IMG/VR virus record: IMGVR_UViG_3300046507_000639
Coordinates: 1-64,000 of that record
Source of the DNA: a virus
Lineage: Duplodnaviria; Heunggongvirae; Uroviricota; Caudoviricetes
Reading direction: 5' to 3' (one strand)
DNA: 64,000 bases
The notes beneath the pieces are model-generated. The model searched no databases, was not told the origin of the DNA, and worked only from the letters and a program-made list of their open reading frames with translations. The translations under genes and the position numbers were made by a program. Shown piece by piece: positions 18,176 to 63,397 of the stretch (position 1 is the first letter of the stretch; each line of letters starts with the position of its first letter).

Positions 18176-18204
18176 AGTATATCACCATCTTAAAGTTTTG
18201 TCAA
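18176..18204 (-). promoter_or_regulatory. sigma70-type promoter (TTGACA-N17-TATACT)
   Basis: Perfect hexamers. Confidence 0.55.
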
Positions 18205-19109
18205 CCAGGAACGTTCTCGTCCTTCAACGTTTTTCGGTACTGGACCCAGCCGCGGAAGTTGCCGTGTAGCTCAGGGTTCTCGTACCGGTCTTCCCACTGG
18301 TCATTCCCGCGGAACCCACGGATGACGTAGTCGGGGGTCGCCTGGTGCTCGGCGGGCGAGGCGTGCAGGGGAGTCGAGCCCACCAGGAGGTCGTACCGCT
18401 CGAGCTCTCGCTCGATGGACGCGTCGCCATCGAAGGGCTTGTAGCTGATGCGTGCGCAGCGGGCCACGGAGAGCTTCTGCTGGACGTCGAGGGGGAGTCC
18501 CGCCTCGTCTGGGCTGATGTACGGGAGGTGCCACTCGCCCGTGTTGAGCTCCTTAGAGCGAGACCACGTCATCTCATCGAAGATCATGGCCGCGAGGTCG
18601 TGGAAGTGCGGCTCGGCGGCCTCGTGGTCCCTCAGGAAGAAGAAGTTGTTCCACTCGGTCGAGCTGATGAGGGTGTCGATGTAGGAGAACGGCTCGAGCA
18701 GCCGGTTGGCGACCTGCTTGTGGTAGCCCGCCTCCGTGAACGCCTGCGCTGAGCGGAGAGCCTCGTCTCGAGCGTTCAGCCAGGCCTCCTCGCGGGAGAC
18801 GGTCGAGCGGATGAGCGGCGAGTTGATGAACGCGTCGACCTTCGCGTCGCATTCTTCCGAGGCCTGCATGCCGCGCTGGTTCTTGCCCCAGTGCCACGGG
18901 ACGAACGGCGCCGTCTGGACTTCTCGGAGCATCGTCTCCACCGGGACTGCGCGAGACGATCGCGCGTTACGGCTGAACACCCGGTGCGTCATGAGCTCGG
19001 CGTGGATGATCCTCGGGTAGTGGGCGTGGATGGTAACGAGCCGCAGGCCCTCAGGTGACACCGAGTCGGCCACCACTCTCACGAACATGTCGTTCATATC
19101 AGACTCCAA
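18201..19109 (-). CDS. thyX: flavin-dependent thymidylate synthase ThyX-like
   Basis: LMTHRVFSRNARSSRAV fits the ThyX motif (RHRxxSxxxxSxR), with T replacing the first R. 302 aa, longer than typical ThyX. Confidence 0.65.
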   Translation of the reverse strand: MESDMNDMFVRVVADSVSPEGLRLVTIHAHYPRIIHAELMTHRVFSRNARSSRAVPVETMLREVQTAPFVPWHWGKNQRGMQASEECDAKVDAFINSPLIRSTVSREEAWLNARDEALRSAQAFTEAGYHKQVANRLLEPFSYIDTLISSTEWNNFFFLRDHEAAEPHFHDLAAMIFDEMTWSRSKELNTGEWHLPYISPDEAGLPLDVQQKLSVARCARISYKPFDGDASIERELERYDLLVGSTPLHASPAEHQATPDYVIRGFRGNDQWEDRYENPELHGNFRGWVQYRKTLKDENVPG

Positions 19110-19854
19110 ATTTTAGACGGAACTGTCGACGCGCGGCGATGACGTCGTTGTAGTAGTCGCCGCTCTTTTCCACGAACACCTGGGGCTCGTCGTGGTCCAC
19201 GGTGATGACCGTGACTATCTGGTGGACCGCGATGCCCTTCATCTCGTAGAGCATCATGGCGTACGCCGTCTCCTGGACGAAGTACTTCTTGATCCAGTCC
19301 CTCTCCTTCGGCCGCGACGACGTCTTGAAGTCGACGATCGAGAGGACGCCGTCGAACTCTGCTATGAGGTCGACTCGGCCGGCCATCTTCTGCCTCTTCG
19401 TGAAGAGAGGAGTCTCCTGCGCGTAGATCAGTCCCACGCGGGCGTCGAGGATCGGCTTCAGCTTGAGGAAGGAGTCGCGCTCGATGAACTGGTAGGGCGA
19501 GAGGTCGGTCAGGGAGTTCTTCAGGTAGAGCTCGCACATCTCGTGCACGGCTGTCCCCTTGATGGTCGCCCTCTTGGAGACCCGGGCGGCCTCCTCCTCT
19601 CCGACCCGCTTCTTCCACTCATCGAGCGCGGCGTTGTCGAGTGAGCCGAGGACGGTGGTCACCGAAGGGTAGACCGCGTCCCCGATCACGTACCCGCGAC
19701 CGTAAGGCATGTCGCGGGTGTTCACTTCTTCGAAGAGTACGTCAGTCCTCTCGAACTCTCGCGGGTTCTCTAATGAAACCTGGGAGGGCTGGCTCTTCGC
19801 TTTCAGCTGGGCGAATGTCGTACTCGGCGATGATGTATTCACGTATGAAGTCAC
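19099..19854 (-). CDS. PD-(D/E)xK nuclease superfamily protein
   Basis: DLIAEFDG..LSIVDFKTS fits the D..E.K motif arrangement. Confidence 0.5.
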   Translation of the reverse strand: MTSYVNTSSPSTTFAQLKAKSQPSQVSLENPREFERTDVLFEEVNTRDMPYGRGYVIGDAVYPSVTTVLGSLDNAALDEWKKRVGEEEAARVSKRATIKGTAVHEMCELYLKNSLTDLSPYQFIERDSFLKLKPILDARVGLIYAQETPLFTKRQKMAGRVDLIAEFDGVLSIVDFKTSSRPKERDWIKKYFVQETAYAMMLYEMKGIAVHQIVTVITVDHDEPQVFVEKSGDYYNDVIAARRQFRLKFGV

Positions 19855-23702: not shown

Positions 23703-24650
23703 TTAAAGGGAAGTGAGGAGGTCGATCCACCGCAGTTTGAGGAGGTCCCAGTTGTAGAACGTGTCAAAATACAGCTTCTGGGCGTTCAGGTAGGGCTGCA
23801 GGCTCGATCGGTCCTGGAACTTTAAGATGGTCCTGTGCATCCGCTGGTAGAAGACGTTGGCGTGCTCCTGAAGGTCCTCGGTCCACTGGTAGTCATCGGC
23901 CCACCGTGCGCACGTGTCGGTCAGACCCGCGTAGTTCGGCGCCACCACGATGTTGCGGGCGCTGAACGCCTCGATGGCCGCCAGGCAGGACGTCTCAGGC
24001 CAGATAGACGGGTAGGCGAATATGTCGGTCTTGGCGAGGGCGGCTCGGACCTCGTCGTTCGGACGAGTGCCGTAGTAGTTGATCTTCGGGTGGTTCTTAC
24101 AGACGTGGAACAGCGGCTCGTACGGCTTGTCGCGCTCACCCCACCCGTAGATGTCGAACGACGAGTAGACGTGAAGGCGGATGTTGTCGTGGACCCTGGC
24201 GAGCGCCTCGAAGACCGGGACGAGGATCACGAGGCCTCGGTGCGGCGTCGTGTGGTAGACGATGTTGATCTCGTCCTTCGATTTCTCGTGGCAGTCCGCG
24301 ATCGGGTAGATGCCGTTCTGGATGACGCAGGCCTCGGAGTAGGGGAGACCCTTGTGCGTGTTGTACGCCTGCAGCTGCCAGTCTGACACGCAGACGATCT
24401 TGTCGAACTGGGCGCGGAACGACGGGTCGGACAGCCTGTCGGACTCGGGGTCGTTCGGCAGGTCGTGGAGGACGAGGACTTTCTTGAGGGACGGGTCGAG
24501 GTCGCGTACGCGGGAGTGCACGATCTGGAAGCCCTTGAGCAGGTCCTGGGGGATCGACTCGACCATCCGCGTCGCCATCAGCTCGGTCCCGCCCATGGCC
24601 TTGTTCGTCAGCTCGTTGAACTTGAGCTCGCCTCGTATGATCTGCGTCAA
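23703..24650 (-). CDS. glycosyltransferase (GT-B fold, GT4-like)
   Basis: C-terminal ETSCLAAIEAFSARNIVVAPNYAGLTD resembles the GT4 E..G..EA...G.PvV signature. Confidence 0.55.
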   Translation of the reverse strand: MTQIIRGELKFNELTNKAMGGTELMATRMVESIPQDLLKGFQIVHSRVRDLDPSLKKVLVLHDLPNDPESDRLSDPSFRAQFDKIVCVSDWQLQAYNTHKGLPYSEACVIQNGIYPIADCHEKSKDEINIVYHTTPHRGLVILVPVFEALARVHDNIRLHVYSSFDIYGWGERDKPYEPLFHVCKNHPKINYYGTRPNDEVRAALAKTDIFAYPSIWPETSCLAAIEAFSARNIVVAPNYAGLTDTCARWADDYQWTEDLQEHANVFYQRMHRTILKFQDRSSLQPYLNAQKLYFDTFYNWDLLKLRWIDLLTSL

Positions 24651-34027: not shown

Positions 34028-34316
34028 CGGCGGACTCCCTCGCTACCTCGTCGAACTTCGGACCGCCGACCAGGTAGCCCGGCGTCGCGGACATTAGGTT
34101 CGGATGAGTAATGTCGATGCAGACGTGAGGGAAGACGAGCGAGCCGTCTTCAACCGGTATCTCCATCATGTCAGTCTCTTGAGTGAGTCCTAACACAATC
34201 GCCAGTTCCCAGCACCTCGATGCCGAGACAGACGTTATGTCGTCCTCGTAGAGGCCGCAGAACAGGAAGCGGTTTCCGTCCTCGTCGACGAACACTGGGT
34301 ATCTGATCTTAGACAT
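34020..34316 (-). CDS. hypothetical protein
   Basis: 98 aa ORF. Confidence 0.5.
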   Translation of the reverse strand: MSKIRYPVFVDEDGNRFLFCGLYEDDITSVSASRCWELAIVLGLTQETDMMEIPVEDGSLVFPHVCIDITHPNLMSATPGYLVGGPKFDEVARESAGA

Positions 34317-35547
34317 GTTTCTTCCTGTGTATGTTGGCCGCGTCAGCCTTAGCCCTGTGCAGCACGTCCTTGCGGCGGTTTATCGGCATGGCCTCTATCT
34401 CGGCCGGGTCTTCGACCACGTCGGACAGCTTCACCTTCGAGACGGCGCGTATGACTGTCTTGGCAGTCTCGGCGTTCGGGTAGTCCCTGTCGGAGTAGAA
34501 GCTGGATCGACCGCGAGAGTCACACATGGACACGGTCGGCAGTATTTCCGCCAGACCCGGGCACTTTGGCAGCTGCAGGTCGTCGACCATGTCAGCTATC
34601 GTCGTGCCCTTCAGCAGGTGGAAGTTGTGCACGTGGGTGTGGTACTTCGCCACCACCGCGCTGGCGTGACGCCACTCCGACGGCATCTTCAACCGGTCGG
34701 CCATGTCTCGAGCTATGAAGTAGCCGCGCGCCTCGTGGCCGTAGTGGTGCGGCAGCACGTCGGCCGGAGTGGTGCCCTTGCCCAGGTCGTGGACCAGCGC
34801 GCAGTACCTCGTCAGCGGGTGATGTGAGGCCTTCGTGGCCTCGTCCAGAACCATCATGGTGTGAGTGAACGAGTCGCCCTCGGGGTGGTGCTCGTAGGAG
34901 CCCGCAGGGACTCCGACCAGTCGGTGCACCTCGGGGAAGACGACTTCCAGGGCGCCGACCATCTGCAGGAACACGAAGAACCGTGAGGGCCTCTTCTCGC
35001 CCAGCGCCTTGACCATCTCGGCCGAGACTCGCTCGGGAGTCAAGTGTGCCAGCTCGCCGGCCGCGACCATCTCACGGCACAGCTTCACGGTTGTCTTGTG
35101 GACAACGAAGTCAGTCCACCTCGACAGGAAGCGTGCCAGCCGCAGCACGCGCACCGGGTCTTCCTTGAAGCCCTCGTCGTCGACGTGGCGCAGGACGCCG
35201 TCGCGCAGGTCTCGCTCGCCGTTGAACGGGTCGTACAGGACGCCGTCGGCCATCGCCATGGCGTTCACGGTCAGGTCTCGTCGGCGCAGGTCGTCCTCCA
35301 GAGACACACCCTCGGTCTCGACCGTGAAGCCGTGGTAGCCGTTCCCGCTCTTCTTCTCGGTTCGGGCCAGCGCGTGCTCCTCGCCGGTCACGGGGTGCAA
35401 GAAGACCGGGAAGTCAGCCCCGACTTTCTTGTAGCCCATGTCCAGCATCTCCTGCTCGGACGAGCCGACGACGACCCAGTCGACGTCTTTGGCGTAAGCG
35501 TTCATGAAGGTGTCCCGCACGCAGCCGCCGACTTTATAGAACTTCAT
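34309..35547 (-). CDS. cca: CCA-adding tRNA nucleotidyltransferase (class II, with HD domain)
   Basis: Pol-beta head MKFYKVGGCVRD...GADFPVF. HD motif HSFTH...HDLGK. Confidence 0.8.
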   Translation of the reverse strand: MKFYKVGGCVRDTFMNAYAKDVDWVVVGSSEQEMLDMGYKKVGADFPVFLHPVTGEEHALARTEKKSGNGYHGFTVETEGVSLEDDLRRRDLTVNAMAMADGVLYDPFNGERDLRDGVLRHVDDEGFKEDPVRVLRLARFLSRWTDFVVHKTTVKLCREMVAAGELAHLTPERVSAEMVKALGEKRPSRFFVFLQMVGALEVVFPEVHRLVGVPAGSYEHHPEGDSFTHTMMVLDEATKASHHPLTRYCALVHDLGKGTTPADVLPHHYGHEARGYFIARDMADRLKMPSEWRHASAVVAKYHTHVHNFHLLKGTTIADMVDDLQLPKCPGLAEILPTVSMCDSRGRSSFYSDRDYPNAETAKTVIRAVSKVKLSDVVEDPAEIEAMPINRRKDVLHRAKADAANIHRKKHV

Positions 35548-36269: not shown

Positions 36270-37559
36270 TCACTGCCAGACCTTCACCCACTCGATCGGC
36301 ATCTGGGCCGAGTAAGAAGTTGGGACGGCCGGCTTGGTCACCAGGCCACCCACCGCGATGTTGATCTGCAGGTAGCAGTCCTTGTCGGGGAACACGTTCG
36401 GGACAGCGAAGTACGGCACGTCGTCGCAGTAGAAGACCACCTCGTCGTCTCCCCAGTAGACTCCCCAGACGTGGGCGACGGCGACGTCGATGCCCAGCTG
36501 CTTGAGTCGTGACGAGAACAGCGTGTGGTTCCCCGTGGCGGCGTCCTTCCAGTGCACGGTCGTTCCGACCTGGTCGAGCGTGCCTGCCGTAGAGAAGAAC
36601 CCCTCGAACATGTCGAGCTCGATGGACGGCCAGGACTGGTCGGTCGCGACCATCCAGAAAGCCGGCCAGGAACCCTGTGCCAGGGGCATGGTCATCTTCG
36701 CCTCGACGTAGGAGCCGCGACGGATCGTGCCGAAGTTCTTCTCGGTCGTGACGATGCTGGCCGAGTACTTGAACGGCTGGATGACGTTGTTGACCACGTC
36801 CCAAGGGCACGGTATCTGCGCGCCGTTGACGTCGAGCACGCCCTCGGGGTGGTACGCCGAGTTGAGCACCAGCTTGCCCGAGACTATCGAGTAGGGAGTC
36901 GTGTTCGGGTTCACCGTCGAGTCAGCGTAGTAGCCCACTTCACGGTTGCCGGCCTGGGTGCGTCCCTGGTTCAGTCGCGTCCTCCAGCAGGGGGTGCCGT
37001 CGGCCTTGAAGCCGCTGTCGCTCGCAGCGAACGACGTGAACTTCTCGACGAACGCGAGTGAGAGGTTGGCCGGCCGCGGAGAGAGCGCTGACACCTTCGG
37101 GAGGGCTGCGCCGGGGTAGGTGACGGTGAGGTTTGAGCGGTCACCCGAGATCGTCGCCGTGCTGCGAGACAGGGTGAGGGGAGGGCTGTTCTGCGCCCAC
37201 CCGAGGATGAGGGTGAACTTCTTAGTGCCGAGGTCCTGGAGCAGCTTGACCGGGACTGACTTGACCTGCTCTCCGGGCTGGAAGGAGAGGTACCCGTCGG
37301 CTCGGCTGTACTGAAAGTTCTCGACCGCGGTGCCGTTCTGGCTCAGGTACCGGATCACCATGGTCTGTTCGGCCGGAGCGCTGAGCGCGACCGGCACGAG
37401 CACGGTCCGCTCGCCGGCTTCGACGAACGCGTCGTACACGGTCACCGTGAGTCCCACGTAGTTGAAGGCCGGGGCGGGGACTACCGTCACCTCCAGGGCC
37501 TTCGTCAAGACCGCGATCATGTCGCCCGCGGCAGTCTTCTGTTCGTCTGTGAGTTCCAT
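36270..37559 (-). CDS. GH16-family glycoside hydrolase-like protein with N-terminal beta-sandwich region
   Basis: GSWPAFWM...WPSIELDMFEG fits the GH16 ExDxxE catalytic motif. Start at internal Met MELTDEQ. Confidence 0.6.
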   Translation of the reverse strand: MELTDEQKTAAGDMIAVLTKALEVTVVPAPAFNYVGLTVTVYDAFVEAGERTVLVPVALSAPAEQTMVIRYLSQNGTAVENFQYSRADGYLSFQPGEQVKSVPVKLLQDLGTKKFTLILGWAQNSPPLTLSRSTATISGDRSNLTVTYPGAALPKVSALSPRPANLSLAFVEKFTSFAASDSGFKADGTPCWRTRLNQGRTQAGNREVGYYADSTVNPNTTPYSIVSGKLVLNSAYHPEGVLDVNGAQIPCPWDVVNNVIQPFKYSASIVTTEKNFGTIRRGSYVEAKMTMPLAQGSWPAFWMVATDQSWPSIELDMFEGFFSTAGTLDQVGTTVHWKDAATGNHTLFSSRLKQLGIDVAVAHVWGVYWGDDEVVFYCDDVPYFAVPNVFPDKDCYLQINIAVGGLVTKPAVPTSYSAQMPIEWVKVWQ

Positions 37560-37569
37560 CTGTTCCTCG

Positions 37570-43757: not shown

Positions 43758-44686
43758 TCGATCTCTTTCAGGATGATGTTGAGTGGGCTTATGAACGTCT
43801 TGTCGAACTGCGTCTCGTAGTCGATGTACTGCTCGAGGTTGAGGCTCGGCGGCAGGGACGACGAGACCGCGAAGACGTTCTCACGGATCGGGTTCGGGAC
43901 CTTCATGTACGTGAACTTGATCTTGTCGCCGTCGTTGATCAGCGGGAACTTCTTGTCGAGGCCGTGCTCCTTGATGGTCGCGTTGTAGACCAGCGCGGCC
44001 CGGACGTGCATCGGGGTGCCCTTGCGGTAGACGGTGTGCTTGTCGGCGTAGTCACGCATCCCGTTGACGCCTGACGGCTTGCCGACCTCCTCGAAGCGCA
44101 TCTTCGAGAACTCGTCCCGGCACTTCGCGACGTACTCGTGGAGCTGCTCCTCGGTGCCGTTCATGATGATGCTGATCGACTTCTTGATGTACTCGCGGCA
44201 GACGTACGGGGTGTTGGACCGCACGGCCTCGATGCCAGTCATCTTGACCTTGGGCTCCTTGTACCGCACGTTCTCGGAGTCCCACACGTTCATGACGTAC
44301 TTCTTCTTGCCCGTCCAGATGGCGACGTCCGCGATGTTCTCGCGCTTCATCTTCATCTTCTGGGAGAACGCGTTCATCATGTCGGCGAGCTCTTGGTACG
44401 ACTCTTCGACGTAGGGCTCGAGGACTTCACGACAGAACTTGTCCACGAAGTTGACGACCTTCTCCTTGTCGGAGGTCTCGCCGAAGACTTTCTTGACGAG
44501 CAGGTCGAGCTTGATGTAGTTGGAGTCTGTGTCGACCGCGAGGACGTAGTCAACTCCGTCCGTCTTGAGCACCCGGTTGAGGTACTCGTTGAACTTCTTC
44601 GCGATCCACTTGATCGAGAGCTGGCCGGACAACGTGATGCTCTCGGCCAGGACGTCTGAGTAGTACAGGAAGTACTGGTTACTCAT
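43712..44686 (-). CDS. family-B DNA polymerase, C-terminal part (43B-like; palm motif C plus thumb)
   Basis: Motif C LAVDTDSNYI and a KKYVMNVWDSE..KMTGIE region. The frame stays open and coding-like upstream to 44871, including motif B KKILLNSCYG, but has no ATG/GTG/TTG. Confidence 0.8.
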   Translation of the reverse strand: MSNQYFLYYSDVLAESITLSGQLSIKWIAKKFNEYLNRVLKTDGVDYVLAVDTDSNYIKLDLLVKKVFGETSDKEKVVNFVDKFCREVLEPYVEESYQELADMMNAFSQKMKMKRENIADVAIWTGKKKYVMNVWDSENVRYKEPKVKMTGIEAVRSNTPYVCREYIKKSISIIMNGTEEQLHEYVAKCRDEFSKMRFEEVGKPSGVNGMRDYADKHTVYRKGTPMHVRAALVYNATIKEHGLDKKFPLINDGDKIKFTYMKVPNPIRENVFAVSSSLPPSLNLEQYIDYETQFDKTFISPLNIILKEIDWSYEKRLSLEEFFS

Positions 44687-44837
44687 AGCGCCGTAGCAGG
44701 AGTTCAGCAGGATCTTCTTGGCGAGCTGGATGTTGTGATACTTAGAGACCTTGACTTCAGTCTCACGGCGCAGAGTTTTGAGCTCTGCGTCGGTCAGAGT
44801 TGAGTAGTCGATGGGGAATGTCCTTGAGAAAGATCTA

Positions 44838-44866
44838 GTATAAACTATTCCGTCGAGAATGTAAAC
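44838..44866 (-). promoter_or_regulatory. sigma70-type promoter (TTTACA-N17-TATACT) inside the polymerase-splitting insert
   Basis: Points into the 43B reading frame. An AAGGA SD-like element follows. Confidence 0.5.
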
Positions 44867-45033
44867 AGTTTAGTAGCACTTCGCGATCTGGATGGTCTGA
44901 CTGCGAGTGGACTCAGACGTCGTCTTGAGCTCTGCGAGTGCCTGCTCACACTTCTCTTGAGAAGAGAAAGTGGTGGACACGTTCACGTAACCGCCGGCCG
45001 CCCAGTTGAACGCCACGAACACTAGCGTGTAGA

Positions 45034-45573
45034 TCATCCGAACGTCTCCTCGATCAGCTTCTTGTGCTCATTGATCACGTCCTCGAGCAGTACCGGCGCG
45101 TAACTCGTCTTCTCGACCGACACGTTGACGTGACGCGTCGTCGGTGCGTCGTTCTGGTGGATGTGGCCGTGGACGTTGTACGTCACCTTGTAGAGGGACG
45201 ACTCGTGCTGCGGCGTGTGGCTGAGCAGCAGGTCGAGCTCCGGCACGAAGCGCCACATCATGATCTTCTGGAAGTGACGCTGCAGGACGGGGCACTTGCC
45301 GTCGTCGTGGTTGCCCAGGATGAGACGCTTCTTCCCGTTCAGCCGAGCGAGAATTTTATCAGCATCATCGCGATGACCAAAGTAAACGTCCCCAAGGTGA
45401 TAAACATGGTCGCTCACTCCTACGACTCGGTTCCAGTTCTCGATCATCGTCTCGTTCATGTGCTCGACGGACTCGAAGAGCTCGCCTCTGAACTTGATGT
45501 GGTGTCCGTCCTCGAAGTTGAGGATGTTCTTGTGGTTGAAGTGCGTGTCGCTTACGACGAAAAGGTCTCTCAC
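45034..45573 (-). CDS. metallophosphoesterase inserted between the two DNA polymerase cistrons
   Basis: DTHFNH, GDVYFGH, GNHDD, HGHIH motifs. Its ATG overlaps the 43A stop (ATGA). Confidence 0.7.
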   Translation of the reverse strand: MRDLFVVSDTHFNHKNILNFEDGHHIKFRGELFESVEHMNETMIENWNRVVGVSDHVYHLGDVYFGHRDDADKILARLNGKKRLILGNHDDGKCPVLQRHFQKIMMWRFVPELDLLLSHTPQHESSLYKVTYNVHGHIHQNDAPTTRHVNVSVEKTSYAPVLLEDVINEHKKLIEETFG

Positions 45574-47060
45574 GTGAGTATGCCTCTCTTCTTCATCTCG
45601 GCCTCTATGGCCTCTAGGTTCTGTTTCTCTTCGATCATCATGGACTTGAACTTCGATCGGTCGTTGTACATCTGCTCCATGAGGACCGGCACGAAGCCCT
45701 GCTTCTCACGGGAGTAGAGGGCGCCGCCGGCAGTCAGTGCGAGGTTGGCCTCCCTCAGCTGGGCCTGCCTCTCGTCGTTCATGAAGCCGTTGATGATCCG
45801 GTCCGGTGAAGTTTCGTCCGACGGCAGCTCGTCCAGCACGTCGACGAACGTCTCGGGCGATATGTTGTACTGCATGATCAGGTGCGGGTACAGGGAGTTC
45901 AAGTCGAAGCTCGCCACCCACTCATGTCGGCCCGTGATGGGCTCCTTGACGTACCCGCCCGCGATCTGCTTCTCCTTCATGGAGTGCTTCTTGGGCGGCG
46001 ACACGATGCCCTGTCCGAGCAGGTAGTTGTGCATGATGATCTCCCAGATCTTCACCGACGTGAACGTGTCAGCGAAGTTGACCAGGGAGTCGTACGCGAT
46101 GGCGAATACCTGCTCGATGAACCCGAGCTTGTCGTTGATCCGCGACACCAGCATGACGTCGTGGATGTTGTAGTCCATGTACTTCTTGAAGTCGTTCTTG
46201 TAGAGGTCGTTGAGCGACTCGTACTCGGAGTAGTCCAGCTTCTTCTCGCCGATCACCACGAACGCGATGTTGTCGAGTCGGTAGGACTCCTCGTTGGAGA
46301 ACGAGAACTTCTTGTAGAGCGGGAGGTAGTCGAGGGACGTGATGCCCACGAGCTCGTACAGGGTCTTGTTGGACCCGTGGTAGAACACCGTGCTCTCTTT
46401 GATCTTCTTCCACGGCGAGAGCAGCAGGACGGAGTCGTCGCCGAGCAGCTTCTTGACGCGGTTCACGATGTACGGGATGTCGAAGTAGTCGATGTTCCAG
46501 CCGGTCACCACGTCGGGGTCGAAGTTGAGCCAGATCTGGATGAACTTGTCGAGGAGGTCGTTCTCGTTCTTACACAGGATGTAAGTGACGTTCGGCAGGC
46601 TCGGCTCGTACGGCATGAGCCCCAGCGAGTAGACCTTCTTGTTCTTCTCGATGGTGATCGCGGTGATCGGCCAGTCGGCCTTCCAGGGGTCGGGGAACTC
46701 ATCGGCTCCGACTTCGATGTCGACGTTGACCACGCTGATCTGCTTCGGGTCGTAAGGCACGTCCCGGTACTCGTCATAGAGGTACACGTACGGCCAGTTA
46801 GTCGACCCGTAGACCTCGAAGTTGTGGACCTCGTCGTACCTCTCGACGAACTCCTTGGCGTCGTAGATAGAGTCGAAGTCGACCTTCTCTACTGGCTGGC
46901 CTCGGAGGGTCCTGTAGCTCGTCGTCGACTCGAGGTTCCTCGAGCGAGTGAAGAGGTACGGCTTGTAGGGGATAGACTCTTGAAAGCGGCGGCCGTTGTT
47001 CCATCCACGGACGCGTACTCGTCCGCCCCAGTGGGCGACGTTCGTATAAAATTTTAGCAT
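45570..47060 (-). CDS. family-B DNA polymerase, N-terminal part (43A-like; 3'-5' exonuclease plus motif A)
   Basis: Exo I VDIEV. Motif A DLNSLYPHLI. The polypeptide ends ...KKRGILT before motif B. Confidence 0.8.
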   Translation of the reverse strand: MLKFYTNVAHWGGRVRVRGWNNGRRFQESIPYKPYLFTRSRNLESTTSYRTLRGQPVEKVDFDSIYDAKEFVERYDEVHNFEVYGSTNWPYVYLYDEYRDVPYDPKQISVVNVDIEVGADEFPDPWKADWPITAITIEKNKKVYSLGLMPYEPSLPNVTYILCKNENDLLDKFIQIWLNFDPDVVTGWNIDYFDIPYIVNRVKKLLGDDSVLLLSPWKKIKESTVFYHGSNKTLYELVGITSLDYLPLYKKFSFSNEESYRLDNIAFVVIGEKKLDYSEYESLNDLYKNDFKKYMDYNIHDVMLVSRINDKLGFIEQVFAIAYDSLVNFADTFTSVKIWEIIMHNYLLGQGIVSPPKKHSMKEKQIAGGYVKEPITGRHEWVASFDLNSLYPHLIMQYNISPETFVDVLDELPSDETSPDRIINGFMNDERQAQLREANLALTAGGALYSREKQGFVPVLMEQMYNDRSKFKSMMIEEKQNLEAIEAEMKKRGILT

Positions 47061-56825: not shown

Positions 56826-57000
56826 TGTCAAATAGTCCTTCTTGCTCCAGTAACTCTAGGAGGTACTCGCGGAGCACTTCCATGAGCTGTTCGTGAGTCT
56901 CGATGTTGCGCCCCGCGACGAGGTCTCGGATGACCGAGGTCTCTATCTCGATGTCGATGGTGTCGGTCTCGTCTTCTTCGTTCACTACGGTGAGGATCAT
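56812..57000 (-). CDS. hypothetical acidic protein (start MILTVVN)
   Basis: ATGA coupling. Confidence 0.45.
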   Translation of the reverse strand: MILTVVNEEDETDTIDIEIETSVIRDLVAGRNIETHEQLMEVLREYLLELLEQEGLFDNGQH

Positions 57001-58007
57001 TTCTTGACCTTCTTGATGGCGTCCTTGTCGACCGTAGCGGAGGCGCCGATGGCCGCGAGGGCCGCCAGCTTGCCGCCGAAGGTGTAGAATCCGCTGTGCT
57101 TGAGTTCGATCCAGGGGCACATCCAGACCTTCATGCCGGCGCGGCGCACGTTCTGACAGAACATGTAGTCCTCGCTCAGGTACCGCTTCGAGCTGTGTTT
57201 CTCACGCTCGCGGATGTCCTTGACCTTGGCCTGGAGGCTCGCTATCGTCAGCACGGAGTCCTTGCCGTCCTCGGCGTCGGTCTCGAGTATCTCGTCCATA
57301 ATCGCCTCGAACTCGCTCTCCTTGCGGTTCTTGTCGATGAAGCAGTCAAAGTACGTCATGATCTGACGGCTGCCGTCGAAGTTCTCCGAGCGGGCGTGGT
57401 CGGGCACGTACATGTACTCGGGGTAGGCCTTCGCGTACTTCTCGAACGTCTCGCGCGAGATGAGCATGAAGCCGGTGCCGGCCTCAGAGACCTCAGCGGG
57501 CTCGTTCAGCGGGATGGAGGTGCCGCTCGCGGGGTTGAAGACGAAGTCGCCCACGAAGTCCTCGAGGACGTTCGGGTCGTTGTCCGCGAAGCCCTTGTCG
57601 ACCGCGGCCTTGATCTTCTCCCAGGTAATGCACTTCTTGGGGTACGCCGCCGCCACGACGTTCTTGTTCTCGGGGTCCATCAGCTGCGTCGCGACCAGCG
57701 CGATGACGTCGTTCGCGTTGAACGTGATGTCGGCGTCGATGAACATCAGGTGGGTGGCGTCAGAGCGGAGGAACTCGTCCACGCAGTAGTTGCGGGCGCG
57801 GGTGATGAGGCTCTCGTTGAAGAGGAAGTAGGTCCTCATCTGCATGCCGTACTTGGAGCAGAGCGCCGTCAGGTCCATCATGGACCTCGTGAAGTTGCCC
57901 GTGCACATGCCGCCGTACTGGGGGCTGGCAACGAACAGCTTGCACTCGCGGAGCTTCTCAATGGATATTTCAAACTGCAAGGTCGTATCTCTCGATCTCT
58001 GTTTCAA
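56997..58007 (-). CDS. GT-A-like glycosyltransferase (DxD motif)
   Basis: LMFIDADITF DxD-type motif. LFVASPQYGG N-terminal beta strand. Confidence 0.45.
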   Translation of the reverse strand: MKQRSRDTTLQFEISIEKLRECKLFVASPQYGGMCTGNFTRSMMDLTALCSKYGMQMRTYFLFNESLITRARNYCVDEFLRSDATHLMFIDADITFNANDVIALVATQLMDPENKNVVAAAYPKKCITWEKIKAAVDKGFADNDPNVLEDFVGDFVFNPASGTSIPLNEPAEVSEAGTGFMLISRETFEKYAKAYPEYMYVPDHARSENFDGSRQIMTYFDCFIDKNRKESEFEAIMDEILETDAEDGKDSVLTIASLQAKVKDIREREKHSSKRYLSEDYMFCQNVRRAGMKVWMCPWIELKHSGFYTFGGKLAALAAIGASATVDKDAIKKVKK

Positions 58008-58215
58008 AGTCAGTCAGCTGACGGAAGATCTTGGTGAGCTCCTCCGTGCTGGGTTCAACGGTGGGCTCTGAGTCGAACAGGAACTCGTACTGCACAGGAG
58101 AGTCGCAGGTCCCCGTCAGCACGTAGCCGAACGTGCTCATGATCTTTGCGACCTCGCCGAACAGCCACAGGAGCTGGAAGTCGCGGTGGTTCAGGACTCG
58201 GACGGAGGTGTACAC
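57970..58215 (-). CDS. hypothetical protein
   Basis: 81 aa ORF. Confidence 0.45.
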   Translation of the reverse strand: MYTSVRVLNHRDFQLLWLFGEVAKIMSTFGYVLTGTCDSPVQYEFLFDSEPTVEPSTEELTKIFRQLTDFETEIERYDLAV

Positions 58216-58439
58216 TCTTCTCTCTCCCTCTTGATGCGTTCGAGCTCTCGCTTGGCGAAGAAGATGATCTTCTCCAGGTCGTACACGTCTGACGTGCCTT
58301 CCTTGAGTCCGAGTCGGAAACAGCTCTTGAAGATGTTGCCTCGGGCGAAGTTCATCCCGCGAAGCTCGATGAGGTCTTGGAGCTCTCGCGCTCCCTCAGG
58401 TATCTTGTAGTAGTCAGCGTCACTTCCGCTAAACTTCAT
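58191..58439 (-). CDS. hypothetical protein
   Basis: 82 aa ORF. Confidence 0.5.
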   Translation of the reverse strand: MKFSGSDADYYKIPEGARELQDLIELRGMNFARGNIFKSCFRLGLKEGTSDVYDLEKIIFFAKRELERIKREREECTPPSES

Positions 58440-58471: not shown

Positions 58472-59659
58472 TCAGACCGCGAAGTCAACCAGAGTCCTGG
58501 TCGGGTAGAGAGTCTCTTCCACCTTCTGGTGGATGTTGTCCTGGACTACGTAGCGGTGGCCCGAGGACTTCCTGTTACCGAGCAGTGCTTCACGGACCTC
58601 GGTGGCCATGTCGGTAGCGGTCTGCACCGGCACGTTCTGACAGATGTGGTTGGTCGACTTCTTCGGGTCGCCGAGGATGAAGTCTTGCGGCAGTCCCATG
58701 ATGGTCATCGCCTCGCGGTAGTCGATGTACCGGTCGTAGTCGGGGTGCTTGATCGAGGACGGCATGTGGCCCACGAAGGCGCCGATGTAGTCCTTGGCGA
58801 TCACGAGGTCTTTCTTCATGTACCCCTTGTGGTCGTCGAGCTTGGCCTGGCGCCGGCGAGAAGACTTGGCCTCGCGGTCGTAGCCGTTGGCCTCCATCCA
58901 CTCAGCACAGGTGGTCCAGTCAGACTCACGTTCAATCACGTCGATGACGCCCACAGACTTCTCGAGCGAGTCGTAGAACTCCTGGAAGGTCTGCTTGCGC
59001 ACACTCTCGAGGATGAACTTGAGGTACTTGTTGTCGGAGGGCTTGCCCTGACCGATCGGCTCGCGCTGGGTGTTGGAGGTGACTCCGCGCAGGAGGTCCT
59101 CGAAGCGCACGTGTGGGCGGCTGTAGTAGTCGAACAGCGGCGCGTCCATGCCCTGCCAGAAGAAGTAGAACGACCGCACCCTGATCTGCGGCAGGCCGTG
59201 CACGAGCGACTTCGTCTTGATGACGCTCATGGAGTAGTCGTTCTCGAAGGCGAGGTCACGGAGCTTCTCACGGATCTTCGTGCCCTTGTTGGTCGCGAAC
59301 TGCGGGGCGTTCTCACCCCAGAGGACCTTGGGCTTGACGTTCTCGAAGACGTACTTCGCGGAGTCGAACATCCAGTCGTTCGTCTTGGAGTCTGCCGAGG
59401 AAGTCGGCGAGAGAGACGAGAGGCCGGCGCAGGGGCAGACGGCGTTGACGACGTCAACGCGCTTCGGCGTGAAGCCCTCTTCCTTGTCGATCAGGTGGTA
59501 GGGCACCTCGTTGTCGTAGTAGTTCAGTAGGTGGAGGTCGTTCGCCACGAAGGGCGAGTAAGAGAGGATGTACTCAGGTCGAGTGCCGAAAGTTCTCTCC
59601 ATGGCGATGGTCTCGCCGCCGATGAGGGGAACTATGCTCCCCCAGGTAAAGTCACTCAT
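58472..59659 (-). CDS. DNA (cytosine-5)-methyltransferase-fold enzyme
   Basis: Motif I SIVPLIGGET. Motif IV AVCPCAGLS (PC catalytic Cys). Motif VI FENV. Confidence 0.55.
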   Translation of the reverse strand: MSDFTWGSIVPLIGGETIAMERTFGTRPEYILSYSPFVANDLHLLNYYDNEVPYHLIDKEEGFTPKRVDVVNAVCPCAGLSSLSPTSSADSKTNDWMFDSAKYVFENVKPKVLWGENAPQFATNKGTKIREKLRDLAFENDYSMSVIKTKSLVHGLPQIRVRSFYFFWQGMDAPLFDYYSRPHVRFEDLLRGVTSNTQREPIGQGKPSDNKYLKFILESVRKQTFQEFYDSLEKSVGVIDVIERESDWTTCAEWMEANGYDREAKSSRRRQAKLDDHKGYMKKDLVIAKDYIGAFVGHMPSSIKHPDYDRYIDYREAMTIMGLPQDFILGDPKKSTNHICQNVPVQTATDMATEVREALLGNRKSSGHRYVVQDNIHQKVEETLYPTRTLVDFAV

Positions 59660-59727
59660 TCAGTCAATTTCCAGTTGCATCGTATGACCTTATTTATAGG
59701 TCGGAGACGACGCAGAACGGAAATTTA

Positions 59728-60813
59728 TCAGAAGTTGAGGACCTTTGACGACAGGTAACGCACCAGGTCGAGGCGCGTCTCTTCGCGCATCTGCATCGTC
59801 GGAGTGACGTCCGACGGGTTCACCACGAGCGAGCGGAAGGTCCCCTCGTCGATGTCGAAGCTGTCGACAAACTCCCTCCACGGGCACGTCTCGAAGACGA
59901 GCGGGAGGCAGCCGACCTTCAGTGCTTCCTGGTAACGGAAGGGTGAGAATATGCCAGGCTCGTACGCCGGCGCCACGAACGTGAAGCGAGACCTCGAAAG
60001 CAGCTTCACGTACTCGCCGCGTGGGACGGACGTGTCGACGTCGTTGATCTTGTCCTTGATGAGGAACCTCGACCGGAACTCGGGAGACACGGCCGAGATC
60101 ACTCTCTGGGCGTACTCGTGCGAGGCCTTTCGGTCCTTGGTCATGTAAGAATAACCGAAGACGACGTCGTAGTCAACCGTTTCTTCATCGAACGGTGAAC
60201 TCTCGGGCAGTACCATGCCGTCCACGAAGAACGGATGCTTCTCGATGCCCAGGCGCTCTATGCCGTAGCCGTGATAAACGTGGGTGTCGACGGGCCGTAT
60301 GTCGTCTCCCAGCTGTGCCACAGAATTTTCTCCAGGATCGTAGCACATCTCGAGGAACCTGGCTCCAGATAGGTTTGCGACCTTAACTGCAGCGTAGGCC
60401 ACGAAGTAGTGCTTGGCGACGCTGACGAAGGTGATGAATTTGTTAGTGTCGAGGTTCTTCTCGAGGCCGTTCTTCTTACGCTTGAGTGCTCCTCCGTCAG
60501 AGAGGGGTGCGCCAAACAGGTAGACGTCGTCAAAGTCTCCGAAATAGACCGCAGGGTCGAACGCTTCATAGAAGTCTCTCCAGGTCTTGAACTGGTTGGT
60601 GGTGCACTTGTCGAACCACTCCTGGACAGAGACCGACTCGTGAACGGTGATCCTCGCGGTCTTCTCCACGAAGTCCTTGATCTTGTCTGTCTTGTACGCG
60701 TGGAAGAGCACGACGCGGTCGTACTCCCTCAGGAAGTGCATTGACTCGTACAGGGAGGTGAAGTCAGAGCTGAAGGCTCTAGTCGTGAAGATAGCGGCTG
60801 TTCGCAATGTCAA
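59728..60813 (-). CDS. glycosyltransferase resembling T4 DNA beta-glucosyltransferase (BGT family)
   Basis: RFTFVAPAYEPGIFSPFRYQEALKVGCLPLVFE parallels the BGT C-terminal FITLRVWETMASDAVMLI region. Similar length (361 vs 351 aa). Confidence 0.45.
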   Translation of the reverse strand: MTLRTAAIFTTRAFSSDFTSLYESMHFLREYDRVVLFHAYKTDKIKDFVEKTARITVHESVSVQEWFDKCTTNQFKTWRDFYEAFDPAVYFGDFDDVYLFGAPLSDGGALKRKKNGLEKNLDTNKFITFVSVAKHYFVAYAAVKVANLSGARFLEMCYDPGENSVAQLGDDIRPVDTHVYHGYGIERLGIEKHPFFVDGMVLPESSPFDEETVDYDVVFGYSYMTKDRKASHEYAQRVISAVSPEFRSRFLIKDKINDVDTSVPRGEYVKLLSRSRFTFVAPAYEPGIFSPFRYQEALKVGCLPLVFETCPWREFVDSFDIDEGTFRSLVVNPSDVTPTMQMREETRLDLVRYLSSKVLNF

Positions 60814-61858
60814 ACTTCTTGGCTGTCTGGAGGGCGATGTTCACTGCCTGGTGCATGTCGAGGTAGGCGTAGAGACCGGTCCGGCCGATGAACGTCACCT
60901 TCTCGTTTGGAATGGCTCTGTACTTCTCGTAGACCTCACGGTTCTTGCCGTCTCGGTCCTTCACCGGGTAGTACCGCTCCATGTCGTTGTCGCGGTAGTC
61001 GCAAGGTATTTCGGCGGTGAACAGACTGTAGTTCTCGGCTTCAGCCTTAGGAGAGTTCGGGAGCTTGTCCCAGCAGGTGATGCGGGTGTACGGGCCGTCG
61101 TCGGTGTAGTTGACTGTCGCGACGTCTTCTGGCCAGTTGAGCAGGCCGGGAAAGTAGCCTGACTTGTGCATCGCGAGCGTCGCCAAGATTTTGAACTTGA
61201 TGGACCGGTACGGGAGCTCGCCGTGCTCGAAGTCGTAGTACTCATCGATCGGCATCGAGTTGAAAACGTGAAAGTATTCCGCTTCCATACTCTTGTCAAA
61301 CGCCGTGTTGATCCTGACATAAATGCTGGGATGGTCCAGCATCTCTTGTACCAAGCGAGTGTATCCTATGGACGGGAGGCCCTGGAACTCGTCGTTCGGG
61401 AAGTAGAACTCGTTGTCGTCGTCACGGATCGGCACGCGGGAGGCGATGGACGGGTCGAGCTCATCGAGGCTGACTCCCCACATCTTCTTGGTGTACGGGC
61501 GAAAGAAGACGTCGAGGACGTTCTCTTCGCCGACTGCTTCCTTAGTGGCCCGGTTGACCGGGAGGGTCAGGAACTGGCCGCGCCAGTAAGCCTTCACCTT
61601 GTGCTTGTACGGGATCCAGTGGGTGAACTTCGCGAGGTACTCCCACACCGCCCGGTTGTTCGTATGGAACAGGTGAGGTCCGTACTTGTGTACGCGCGGC
61701 CCTACGCTGTGTTCGTAGTCGTAGGCGTTGCCCGCGACGTGCGACCTCTTGTCGATGACGTGCACGTCCCAGCCGAGCTCGGCCAGCTCACGGGCGATGG
61801 TGGCGCCCGAGAAGCCGGCACCGACTACGAGTATGCGTCTGTTCTTATCGGGGTGCAT
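60779..61858 (-). CDS. glf: UDP-galactopyranose mutase (Glf)
   Basis: FAD fold ILVVGAGFSGATIA. HVIDKRSHVAGNAYD...GPHLFHTNN...VWEYL. 359 aa. Confidence 0.8.
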   Translation of the reverse strand: MHPDKNRRILVVGAGFSGATIARELAELGWDVHVIDKRSHVAGNAYDYEHSVGPRVHKYGPHLFHTNNRAVWEYLAKFTHWIPYKHKVKAYWRGQFLTLPVNRATKEAVGEENVLDVFFRPYTKKMWGVSLDELDPSIASRVPIRDDDNEFYFPNDEFQGLPSIGYTRLVQEMLDHPSIYVRINTAFDKSMEAEYFHVFNSMPIDEYYDFEHGELPYRSIKFKILATLAMHKSGYFPGLLNWPEDVATVNYTDDGPYTRITCWDKLPNSPKAEAENYSLFTAEIPCDYRDNDMERYYPVKDRDGKNREVYEKYRAIPNEKVTFIGRTGLYAYLDMHQAVNIALQTAKKFDIANSRYLHD

Positions 61859-62951
61859 CGAGCGCCGCCGTGAGTTCAGAGCGAGTCACTGCCTTGTCGA
61901 GCGGGTGTACCGAATAGATCGCCTCTCGCTGCCACTGCGCCAGCTTGGTCAACTGCGAGTCAGTGAGGCTCTCGATCGTGGACGCGCTCTGAATGAGTGC
62001 GGCGTCCTTGTAGTAGACCATCAGCTCTCGCTTGTCGCCTACGAGGATCGAGCCGGCGTCGGCCACCTGGAGCGGTCGCGCCCTCCACCATCCGGAGCCG
62101 GAGTGGAAGTAGCCGGGCATCAGTACGCCCCACTGGGCGTTGAACTTCTTGCACATCTGGTCCTCGGTGAGGCGCTCGCACTTTTCTTCATTGCGCTTCG
62201 AGCCGTAGTAAGTGATCGGCCAGGACTTGACTCCCTGGGACTCGACCCACTTGCGGGTCTTCTTCTGCACGAGCGAGGCGAAGTTCCACTCCCGCTTCTT
62301 GCCGGCGTCTTCCTCGTCAACTCCGAAAAAGTCGTCAAAAGTCGCGACCTTCTCGACGCCGTAGTTGTTCTCAGGCGTGCGGTTGAAGTGATACGGGTTC
62401 GGGTTGAAGGTGAACACCTCACCCTTCCAGTTCAGCTTGAGCAGTGAGAGGTCTCCGCCCGCGAAGGCCGAGATCAGGAGCCGGTTCTTACGCTCGAGGA
62501 TGAGCTCGCACGCTTCCTTGTACTGGGCAGCGTACTTCGCGACCTCTTCCTTTGACTCCTTGCCCTGCCAGAGGTCGAAGTAGTAATCCTTGAACGCCTT
62601 GTCCAGGTCTCCCGCGACGAAGTAGTCGTGGTAAGACTTGATGCTGTACATGATCTGGTCGGTCTGCCAGTCGTCGAACGCGAAGATCGCGTCCTGGCGG
62701 GCGTAGACTGCCCAGAGTCCTGACCAGAGGAACTGACAGAACGCCTTGGGAGAGTGGATGTAGGTGATGACCTCGTCGTACTGTGACAGGTCTTCCCCGA
62801 TCACGACGGGTCGCTGGTCTACCTCGAAGCCCATGTCCTCGAGCGCGTGCGCCAGGGCGTAGTGGCTCGGGACCACCTTCAGCTCCTGCTTGCGCCAGAA
62901 ATCGCGGACGCATTGATTTTTGTTCAGTCCGTTGATGAGGATTTTCTTCAT
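61845..62951 (-). CDS. GT-B glycosyltransferase resembling T4 alpha-glucosyltransferase (AGT-like); start MKKILING
   Basis: SWPITYYGSKRNEEK vs AGT IPYEYYGNREIDK. ATGA coupling with the dCMP deaminase. Confidence 0.45.
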   Translation of the reverse strand: MKKILINGLNKNQCVRDFWRKQELKVVPSHYALAHALEDMGFEVDQRPVVIGEDLSQYDEVITYIHSPKAFCQFLWSGLWAVYARQDAIFAFDDWQTDQIMYSIKSYHDYFVAGDLDKAFKDYYFDLWQGKESKEEVAKYAAQYKEACELILERKNRLLISAFAGGDLSLLKLNWKGEVFTFNPNPYHFNRTPENNYGVEKVATFDDFFGVDEEDAGKKREWNFASLVQKKTRKWVESQGVKSWPITYYGSKRNEEKCERLTEDQMCKKFNAQWGVLMPGYFHSGSGWWRARPLQVADAGSILVGDKRELMVYYKDAALIQSASTIESLTDSQLTKLAQWQREAIYSVHPLDKAVTRSELTAALDAPR

Positions 62952-63397
62952 GCTATAGTGACTTTCACTCCGGCTTCGTTGAACATGGCTTGGGAGCTCT
63001 CCCATTCTTCTCGCCACTTGTCGGACCTATTTATGTCTCTCTCACGGACGACCACGCGCTTTATCCCGCTCTGGATGACCCCGAGGGCGCACTGAGAACA
63101 GGTGGGTAGTCCGGAAGTGTAGAGGGTGGCGCCCTTCAGTGAGACGCCGGAGAGTGAAGCGTTGTAGATGACGTTCATCTCAGCGTGCACTATCAGTTTA
63201 TACTTTTTCTCACGGTCTGTCAACCGGTCGTCGCTGTCTTCGATGCCGCGCGGAAACCCGTTGTAGCCCAGCGAGAGTACTTGGCCGTGCTCACCGATCG
63301 CGACTGCGCCGATCTTGGACGAGGGGTCCTTAGACCAGCCCGCAACGTGCTCAGCGAGGTCGAGGTACCGACCGTGCCACTTGCATTCTTCACACAC
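62948..63397 (-). CDS. dCMP (deoxycytidylate) deaminase
   Basis: Zinc motifs HAEMNVI and PCSQCA. Confidence 0.8.
   Translation of the reverse strand: MCEECKWHGRYLDLAEHVAGWSKDPSSKIGAVAIGEHGQVLSLGYNGFPRGIEDSDDRLTDREKKYKLIVHAEMNVIYNASLSGVSLKGATLYTSGLPTCSQCALGVIQSGIKRVVVRERDINRSDKWREEWESSQAMFNEAGVKVTIA

Follow-up and report, generated by a model that had tools for sequence, protein, structure and literature searches.

A candidate cytosine hypermodification island in a T4-like phage, with a UDP-galactopyranose mutase gene between two GT-B glycosyltransferase genes

The DNA considered here is a 64,000-nucleotide stretch of a T4-like phage genome (IMG/VR record IMGVR_UViG_3300046507_000639, positions 1 to 64,000; hereafter the window), in which a block of genes at 58-63 kb is most likely a cytosine hypermodification island. 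The preferred reading, given a probability of about 65%, is that the island carries out a T4-type cytosine replacement, making glycosylated 5-hydroxymethylcytosine (hmC) with a sugar derived from a UDP-galactopyranose mutase (Glf). An initial annotation of the window had proposed a larger hypermodification cluster. This proposal is supported for the 58-63 kb block, with Glf as a plausible source of a furanose donor, but not for the ThyX-like, GT-A-like, and GT4-like genes that it also included.

Nearly all genes of the window are on the minus strand. In the order of transcription, the region begins outside the window with DUF1599, gp42-like, and gp30.3-like genes, and continues within it with genes for a dCMP deaminase, a glycosyltransferase of the family here called GT368, Glf, a second glycosyltransferase (GT361), a C5-methyltransferase-like (MTase-like) protein, a DUF3310-type protein, an open reading frame (ORF) of 81 amino acids (aa), a GT-A-like protein, gp45, and gp44. 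The genes of the island within the window are:

62948..63397, minus strand: T4 cd-like dCMP deaminase, whose gene opens the overlapping block (dCMP_cyt_deam_1 62.6 bits; phrog_174 E=4.8e-43)
61845..62951, minus strand: GT-B glycosyltransferase of 368 aa, GT368 family (phrog_14998), candidate hmC-DNA galactofuranosyltransferase
60779..61858, minus strand: Glf, compact form (Pfam GLF 165 bits, with NAD_binding_8)
59728..60813, minus strand: second GT-B glycosyltransferase, 361 aa, rare GT361 family, candidate second sugar transferase
58472..59659, minus strand: C5-cytosine-methyltransferase-fold protein of 395 aa, conserved 3' boundary gene of the island (Pfam DNA_methylase)
58191..58439, minus strand: small DUF3310-type protein of 82 aa, downstream of the MTase-like gene, membership in the island uncertain (phrog_4521 E=2.4e-14)

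The deaminase, GT368, Glf, and GT361 genes form a core block at 59.7-63.4 kb with overlapping reading frames. The overlaps are 4 nt (deaminase/GT368), 14 nt (GT368/Glf), and 35 nt (Glf/GT361, the latter with a TTG start). The tight coupling of the sugar genes and the identities of the deaminase and Glf, all named in the initial annotation, are borne out. The layout was compared across 80 related IMG/VR loci (L016-L095). Their conserved order is DUF1599, gp42-like gene, deaminase, a variable sugar cassette, and the MTase-like gene; the deaminase gene lies between the gp42-like and sugar genes in 29 of 35 related loci. The cassette contains epimerase, nucleotidyltransferase, or glycosyltransferase genes. 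The gene just upstream of the MTase-like gene varies accordingly (Glf, GT368-like, GT361-like, epimerase, a 419-aa glycosyltransferase related to GT414 of Pseudoalteromonas phage XG4, or a 471-aa protein), between fixed flanks of gp42/deaminase on one side and MTase-like/GT-A-like/gp45 on the other. Different phages probably use different sugars. The G+C content of the related contigs is 32-52%.

The enzyme expected to make the acceptor is encoded just past the window edge. The 368-aa transferase has exact matches in two Logan contigs, one of which, L008, differs from the window by one mismatch over a 4 kb overlap and runs 8.9 kb further. Beyond the dCMP deaminase gene, in the upstream direction, L008 carries in succession a gp30.3-like gene, a gene for a 228-aa ThyA-fold protein, and a DUF1599 gene:

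63717..64000, minus strand: T4 gp30.3-like gene, 3' part, which runs off the window (L008 gene calls, Pfam)
64163-64849 by L008 mapping, outside the window (163 bp beyond its end), minus strand: gp42-type dCMP hydroxymethylase
64852-65391, outside the window, minus strand: DUF1599 gene (L008 gene calls, Pfam)

The ThyA-fold protein matches the T4 dCMP hydroxymethylase structures (PDB 1b5e/1b49) with 228 bits (E=1e-66), and is approximately 47-51% identical (tblastn) to the gp42 products of T4-like phages. Its catalytic Cys is kept, and its DFICTN aligns with T4 DFMCTN. In E. coli ThyA numbering, N177 is replaced by Asp (N177D) and L143 by an acidic residue (L143D), reading KND and N-D-F-I-C. 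According to a 2026 Nucleic Acids Research paper by Lee, Weigele, Peters and colleagues (PMC13326640), these two changes are signatures, Asp at N177 being that of dCMP specificity, and D169N marks 5-hydroxycytosine synthases. The protein keeps Asp at the D169 position (MRSND); since D169N is absent, hydroxymethyl-dCMP rather than 5-hydroxycytosine is expected, and by its residues the enzyme should make 5-hydroxymethyl-dCMP. A related contig (L011, 1319-2080) encodes a gp42-like protein with Cys at this position (MRSNC), where hydroxymethylases have Asp and 5-hydroxycytosine synthases have Asn; judging from this residue, its product may differ.

The initial annotation had seen no ThyA-fold hydroxymethylase, which is correct for the 64,000 bases of the window, and had therefore cast the C5-MTase-fold or ThyX-like enzyme as the possible maker of the C5 acceptor. 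With a gp42 ortholog 163 bp past the window end, neither protein is needed for this step, and that assignment is withdrawn. The DUF1599 domain is named "nucleotide modification associated domain 1" in Pfam; in XP12-like phages its homologs, annotated as nucleotide pyrophosphohydrolases, are encoded next to ThyA homologs. A few kb beyond this gene, L008 also carries a MazG/PRA-PH-like gene, and the DUF1599 and MazG-like proteins are probably the candidate dCTP-excluding enzymes. Of the two genes for which the initial annotation looked to the rest of the genome, the gp42-like hydroxymethylase is thus found on L008, and a deoxynucleoside monophosphate (dNMP) kinase is found neither in the window nor on L008.

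The two transferases are akin to T4 beta-glucosyltransferase (BGT) in predicted fold, but lie outside the BGT sequence family. Neither GT368 nor GT361 matches a named family in Pfam (E<=0.01), PHROGs, NCBIfam, or PDB sequences, and therefore the Pfam models of BGT and T4 alpha-glucosyltransferase (AGT) are not hit. Structures were predicted for both from alignments of metagenomic homologs, with predicted local distance difference test (pLDDT) values of 79.7 and 91.7. Both models have a GT-B fold, and T4 BGT is the nearest solved structure, with a lead over glycogen synthase, WlaC, and PimA of only about one Z unit; AGT is neither a sequence relative nor the best structural match of either protein. 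The initial annotation had described the two ORFs as resembling BGT and AGT: the resemblance to BGT survives at the level of the predicted GT-B fold, while sequence resemblance and the comparison with AGT do not. A BFVD fold search with GT368 returned mostly uncharacterized viral proteins and added nothing. For GT361, the long TTG-initiated form is backed by a conserved N-terminus that accounts for the first strand and helix in the predicted structure.

The two families differ in size. GT368 has 639 relatives in the protein collection, whereas GT361 has six homologs, and is found without Glf in Vibrio phages and in phage XG4. In XG4, the GT361 homolog is flanked by a further glycosyltransferase-like gene and by the MTase-like gene, and genes for a gp42-like protein and a sugar nucleotidyltransferase come upstream of it. 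No tblastn match to GT368 or GT361 was obtained in Rhizobium phages, and so both appear unrelated to the transferases of Rhizobium phage RL38J1.

In addition to its Pfam match, Glf aligns to the K. pneumoniae UDP-galactopyranose mutase (UGM) structure 1wam with 219 bits, and in this alignment it keeps the GxGxxG motif and the equivalents of F151, F152, Y155, W160, R174, Y185, R280, Y314, R343, Y349, and D351. Among these, R174, R280, Y155, Y185, Y314, Y349, W160, and D351 are active-site residues of the K. pneumoniae enzyme. To our knowledge, established biochemistry assigns UGM a single role, namely the making of UDP-galactofuranose (UDP-Galf).

Glf is also consistently paired with GT368. Among the 80 loci, GT368 is present in 16/16 that bear Glf. 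Several cultured phages carry GT368 beside Glf (Aeromonas Tulaneviruses, Stenotrophomonas phage IME13, Erwinia phage FBB1), and gp42 is encoded by IME13 and by Aeromonas phages 25, AS4, and Aes516. In phage C48C1, the GT368-Glf pair follows a TET/JBP dioxygenase gene (Pfam 62.6 bits). In metagenomic T4-like contigs, the pair is located between gp42/deaminase and the MTase-like gene, often accompanied by a UDP-hexose 4-epimerase-type gene. As read from these gene neighborhoods, the GT368-Glf pair accompanies hmC made by two unrelated routes, gp42 and TET.

The transferases and Glf could instead act off DNA, as the initial annotation had also considered, either by remodeling host surface glycans such as lipopolysaccharide (superinfection exclusion) or by glycosylating virion proteins. 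The position of these genes beside those of nucleotide metabolism would then be a coincidence. This explanation draws on the GT-B matches to WlaC, PimA, glycogen synthase, and WaaG-type enzymes, which nearly equal that to T4 BGT, on the Glf of cells and prophages (e.g., Streptococcus suis phages), which serves surface polysaccharide synthesis, and on the GT4-like and GT-A-like genes of the window, which are shared with a relative, Rhizobium phage RHph_I1_18, that has none of the hmC genes in the 100 kb examined. On the other hand, the association with two unrelated hmC routes is hard to reconcile with a surface-glycan role, as the pair stands beside an hmC-making enzyme in three settings (its own lineage and the Tulaneviruses, both with gp42, and C48C1 with TET). 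The GT368 frame overlaps that of the dCMP deaminase, and scans of the island revealed neither transmembrane nor lipid-carrier enzymes (Wzx, Wzy, polyprenyl transferases). A role off DNA is considered distinctly unlikely.

A second alternative concerns the sugar. The hmC could be glycosylated from UDP-glucose or UDP-galactopyranose, with Glf inactive or otherwise employed. Glf lacks approximately 36 aa of the helical domain, around which its match splits into two stretches, and it scores 255.3 bits on TIGR00031, under the equivalog cut-off of 303.75. A GT368 subclade without Glf occurs at 5 of the 80 loci, and therefore the GT368 family is not intrinsically galactofuranose-specific; the base-proximal sugar of RL38J1 is reported as galactose in PMC13326640, in passages that give no ring form. 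However, all UGM active-site residues that were checked are kept in a protein family with one known function, every Glf-bearing related locus has GT368, and the Glf frame overlaps that of GT368. A donor other than UDP-Galf is therefore judged fairly unlikely, and galactofuranose remains the preferred sugar.

A further possibility is that hmC arises in replicated DNA, through the MTase-like enzyme and a TET dioxygenase whose gene lies elsewhere in the genome, as in the methyltransferase/TET/glycosyltransferase (MT/TET/GT) systems. C48C1 does couple TET to the GT368-Glf pair, and the DNA examined covers about half of the phage genome. Against this, the ORFs scanned in the window gave no Tet_JBP match, tblastn with the C48C1 TET was negative in the window, L008, and the 80 related loci, and a complete gp42-type route is present; six contigs only were found with both ThyS and a dioxygenase by Pyle et al. 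(10.1101/2023.12.21.572611). The TET route was rejected on these searches and is rated very improbable.

The MTase-like protein at the 3' boundary is a puzzling member of the island. It matches Pfam DNA_methylase with 55.1 bits (cut-off 22), scores 27.2 bits against 100.65 on the dcm model TIGR00675, and aligns to M.HhaI through motifs IV, VI, and VIII. The initial annotation had read motifs I, IV (PC), and VI (ENV) in it. The PC of motif IV (Cys77) is present, while motif VI is ENA and motif I is VPLIGG instead of FxGxG. In an alignment of 24 family members, the invariant residues are Cys77 (PC), E116-N117, Q158/R160/R162, G14-G15, D58, and N342. The family thus keeps catalytic motifs IV, VI (ENA), VIII (QxRxR), IX, and X, including the motif X Asn (N342), the motif I Gly-Gly (G14-G15), and the equivalent of HhaI D60 (D58). 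The positions of HhaI F18/A19/G20 are occupied by Val or Ile/Pro/Leu, and that of HhaI E40 by Ser or Thr, although the MAFFT alignment is uncertain around motifs I-II. In M.HhaI structures, E40 binds the ribose of S-adenosylmethionine (AdoMet), and F18 and G20 are also AdoMet-binding. The family profile aligns to solved methyltransferases over motifs IV-VIII and IX-X only, and the N-terminal 60 aa of the family align to none of them. By these comparisons, the machinery for covalent attack at cytosine C6 is kept, and the cofactor-binding region is altered.

The family comprises more than 2400 proteins in the protein collection and occurs in more than 532 IMG/VR stretches; among isolates, it is present in S-TIM5 cyanophages and XG4 only. 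Where a related IMG/VR locus extends 6 kb or more upstream of the MTase-like gene, a gp42-like gene is found in every case (35/35), and in 34/35 it lies upstream on the same strand, an association that lineage synteny may inflate. The ThyA-fold companions of the MTase-like gene in XG4 and S-TIM54 also have Asp at N177. The "ThyA" of S-TIM54 (L006, 5129-5971), encoded 2 kb from the MTase-like homolog, scores 172 bits on Thymidylat_synt, yet its Asp at the N177 position (PLD) suggests a dCMP-modifying enzyme and not a thymidylate synthase.

Two explanations of this protein have to be weighed. It could be an ordinary AdoMet-dependent orphan cytosine methylase, which protects unreplaced cytosines or methylates host DNA, its link with gp42 being lineage synteny and not a shared pathway. 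Phage orphan methylases are common. The above-threshold DNA_methylase match, the conserved motifs IV, VI, VIII, IX, and X with the Gly-Gly and D60 equivalents, and the strong synteny of T4-like genomes are all in keeping with this. It fits less well with the family-wide replacement of the F18, G20, and E40 equivalents, with the unalignable N-terminus and low dcm score, with the dCMP-specific ThyA-fold genes (N177D) of the differently organized S-TIM54 and XG4 genomes, or with RHph_I1_18, which lacks both genes (100 kb examined). An orphan methylase is a serious possibility, if at somewhat less than even odds. Alternatively, the protein could be a post-replicative enzyme that acts on hmC in DNA and is not a cytosine methylase, which is regarded as a long shot. 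Such an enzyme would turn the conserved Cys-C6 covalent mechanism on hmC, for instance exchanging or transferring the 5-CH2 substituent by way of an exocyclic methylene intermediate. In the laboratory, C5-methylases reportedly show a side reaction of this kind with hmC and thiols, an observation ascribed to Liutkeviciute et al. Activity on hmC would explain both the gp42 linkage and the remodeled AdoMet-binding motifs.

The island is best understood by comparison with known systems. As in T4 hmC glucosylation, there is a gp42 ortholog with the same active-site signatures, a dCMP deaminase, surrounding T4-like replication genes, and post-replicative GT-B enzymes whose nearest solved structure, by predicted fold, is T4 BGT. 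Unlike in T4, sequence comparison does not connect the transferases to BGT or AGT, a C5-MTase-fold gene is present, and the likely dCTP excluders are the DUF1599 and MazG-like proteins, with no recognizable gp56 (the dCTPase of T4). Also unlike in T4, Glf is embedded between the transferases, and the donor is therefore probably not UDP-glucose.

Glycosylated 5-hydroxycytosine systems have been described for RB69, DLP3, HY126, and Rhizobium phage RL38J1 (PMC13326640, 2026). In that paper, arabinofuranose on phage DNA is shown, a supply of UDP-galactofuranose by phage Glf is proposed in Pootjesviridae, and the Glf of the RL38J1 cytosine-glycosylation cluster is proposed to make UDP-Galf. The statement of the initial annotation that galactofuranose is a sugar not known on phage DNA is thus partly overtaken. 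The island would share with these systems a ThyA-fold maker of the acceptor at the nucleotide level, several DNA-acting GT-B enzymes, and a phage-encoded supply of furanose nucleotide-sugars, and differs from them in the Asp at D169, in having no arabinose genes, and in its MTase-like gene.

The nearest cultured carriers of the core pair are the module of Aeromonas Tulaneviruses (Aes012 gp230-228; phage 25, phiAS4), FBB1, and IME13, in which Glf is likewise directly beside a GT368-family gene (26-27% identity). Their pair lies near motA and gene 52 rather than beside gp42 and cd, and they have neither the MTase-like gene nor a GT361 homolog. In the library searched, no published DNA chemistry was found for the carriers of this module. 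Finally, MT/TET(5mYOX)/GT clusters (Burke et al., 2021, PMC8256090; Pyle et al., 2023) also group C5-MTase-fold and glycosyltransferase genes and target cytosine C5, and Pyle et al. catalogued ThyS-associated GT-B clusters in metaviromes. The island differs in having no TET among the ORFs scanned, hmC from gp42, and atypical MTase cofactor-binding motifs; its MTase-like family is distinct, with no tblastn match to C48C1. In a literature search that covered subscription journals in part, descriptions of galactofuranose on hmC, of both transferase families, and of the gp42/MTase-like pairing were not found, PMC13326640 being the nearest result. The logic of the pathway is most likely that of T4, and the new elements are the likely galactofuranose sugar and the unexplained MTase-like partner.

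These comparisons suggest the following scheme. The gp42-type enzyme would make 5-hydroxymethyl-dCMP, as its orthology predicts, while the DUF1599 pyrophosphohydrolase-like and MazG-like proteins probably help to exclude dCTP. The dCMP deaminase and a ThyX-like enzyme of the N4 gp30 type could feed dTMP synthesis, and the polymerase would incorporate hmC. After replication, GT368 is proposed from its fold and linkage to place a sugar on the hydroxymethyl group, in the manner of T4 BGT. The residues and adjacency of Glf point to UDP-galactofuranose, formed from host UDP-galactopyranose, as the most likely donor, with a UDP-hexose 4-epimerase-type gene added in some relatives. GT361 might then add a second sugar or serve a second sequence context. 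Constantly found with gp42 in this lineage, the MTase-fold protein may work on hmC itself, or it may methylate host DNA or whatever cytosine escapes replacement. The product would shield virion DNA from restriction and CRISPR nucleases.

Several points weigh against this scheme, in addition to the Glf deletion, its sub-threshold equivalog score, and the Glf-less GT368 loci described above. The phage is known from metagenome assemblies alone, and genes that merely keep their order in a single phage lineage can look functionally linked. Full replacement of cytosine would leave the MTase-like homolog without an obvious substrate. With the proteins of L011 as queries, no homolog of a dNMP kinase or of EndoIV/denB was found in the window or L008; these genes may lie in the other part of the genome, which is approximately 136 kb.

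The remaining genes that the initial annotation had assigned to the cluster are as follows:

18201-19109, minus strand: ThyX-like protein (Pfam Thy1 28.5 bits, cut-off 24.8; phrog_85 E=1e-75)
23703-24650, minus strand: GT1/GT4 protein (Pfam 41 bits)
43134-43757: HD protein, YfbR-like (19.8 bits, cut-off 25.9)
56997..58007, minus strand: GT-A-like protein with a DAD motif, beside the sliding clamp gene (phrog_1574 E=7.5e-60; sub-threshold glycosyltransferase hits)

As initially noted, the ThyX-like protein has THR where RHR is expected (MTHRVFS). It lacks the ThyX RHR(x)7-8S signature, scores 22.6 against 87.9 on TIGR02170, and belongs to an N4 gp30-like family with 1035 phage records. This common family and a distance of 40 kb from the island rule it out as the acceptor-maker; its likely role, with the deaminase, is dTMP supply. 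The GT4-like call holds, and its product is 41% identical to RHph_I1_18 EVB91_099. For the GT-A call, the DAD motif is present, while matches to glycosyltransferase families are sub-threshold only. The GT-A-like protein is 52% identical to RHph_I1_18 EVB91_075, which is also encoded beside gp45, and 46% identical to a homolog in another related contig (L012), and its gene is downstream of the MTase-like gene in 35/47 loci. In the 100 kb of RHph_I1_18 examined, no gp42, Glf, GT-B, or MTase-like gene was found, and its ThyA is canonical. Since the GT-A-like and GT4-like genes are kept in this island-less relative, they are not tied to hmC and were set aside as pathway members; the GT-A-like gene is probably lineage-conserved and not specific to hmC islands. 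The HD protein resembles YfbR, the 5'-nucleotidase-like match proposed initially, at a sub-threshold score. The DUF3310-type protein has a further match, to the C-terminal portion of phage "nucleotide kinase" PHROGs, and its gene occupies the same position in another related contig (L014).

The phage itself has no close relative at the nucleotide level, as megablast of 56-64 kb against phage records returned none. The G+C content of the window is 58-60%, and very high at third positions. RHph_I1_18 is the closest annotated relative; its class II ribonucleotide reductase is 63% identical, and its gene order agrees with that of the window from the clamp loader to PhoH. Among the larger ORFs, Pfam matches identify a T4-type replication and repair set consisting of gp44, gp62, gp45, RegA, the primase region, RNase H, PhoH, UvsX, and a DnaB-like helicase. 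Between its gp46/47 exonuclease genes and gp45, RHph_I1_18 carries QueD and GTP cyclohydrolase I (FolE) genes (L003, 37655-40716; EVB91_064, EVB91_068), which are apparently 7-deazaguanine-type genes. The gp46/47-gp45 locus seems to be hypervariable in this phage lineage and to host alternative DNA-modification cassettes, with hmC glycosylation in the phage studied here.

Late transcription is evidently of the T4 type. The T4 late-promoter consensus, TATAAATA, occurs in 7 copies in the window (12031, 22508, 32134, 39801, 52215, 54508, and 59691, minus strand), all on the coding strand, as compared with 0.08 expected, and one copy precedes an endolysin-like gene (38959-39783). Another copy stands before the MTase-like gene:

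59691..59698, minus strand: late-promoter consensus, 32 nt upstream of the MTase-like ATG

This copy had suggested late expression of the MTase-like gene. It is kept in just 3/78 relatives and is therefore probably phage-specific, and the suggestion was dropped.

Accessory genes of the window, also recognized by Pfam among the larger ORFs, encode NAD salvage and tRNA-repair enzymes:

14502-17375, minus strand: NAD salvage pair, NAMPT (131 bits) and a fused NMN adenylyltransferase-Nudix protein
3327-4124, 34309-35547, and 13226-13657, minus strand: tRNA-maintenance set, Thg1-like guanylyltransferase, CCA-adding enzyme with an HD domain, and PTH2

Nine tRNA genes are grouped at 7.3-11.8 kb (7363-11813). 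Amid the replication-region genes, 36270-37613 (minus strand) encodes a 447-aa protein with Calx-beta and glycoside hydrolase family 16 domains, perhaps an enzyme that degrades glycans or is associated with the virion. The family-B DNA polymerase is encoded in two parts within 43718-47060 (minus strand). The part at 45585-47060 corresponds to residues 1-500 of the RHph_I1_18 polymerase, and that at 43718-44752 to residues 506-854; between them is a 179-aa ORF (45034-45573) that appears metallophosphoesterase-like by eye, with GNHD- and GHxH-type motifs. One relative (L010) likewise has a separate 367-aa DNA_pol_B gene.

Should the proposed chemistry prove right, galactofuranosyl-hydroxymethylcytosine would join the DNA base modifications as a new member. 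Given the large GT368 and MTase-like families, the module is widespread and not a peculiarity of one odd genome, and since the Glf-GT368 pair also occurs in cultured phages (Aeromonas phages 25, Aes012, and phiAS4; Erwinia FBB1), the prediction is directly testable. The variable gp46/47-gp45 locus is useful for mining new modifications and hmC-labeling enzymes. A C5-methylase-fold enzyme that is strictly paired with cytosine replacement, under which its substrate should be gone, poses a concrete biochemical puzzle. Were the MTase-fold protein to act on hmC, it would represent a new class of hypermodification enzyme that is common in environmental T4-like phages.

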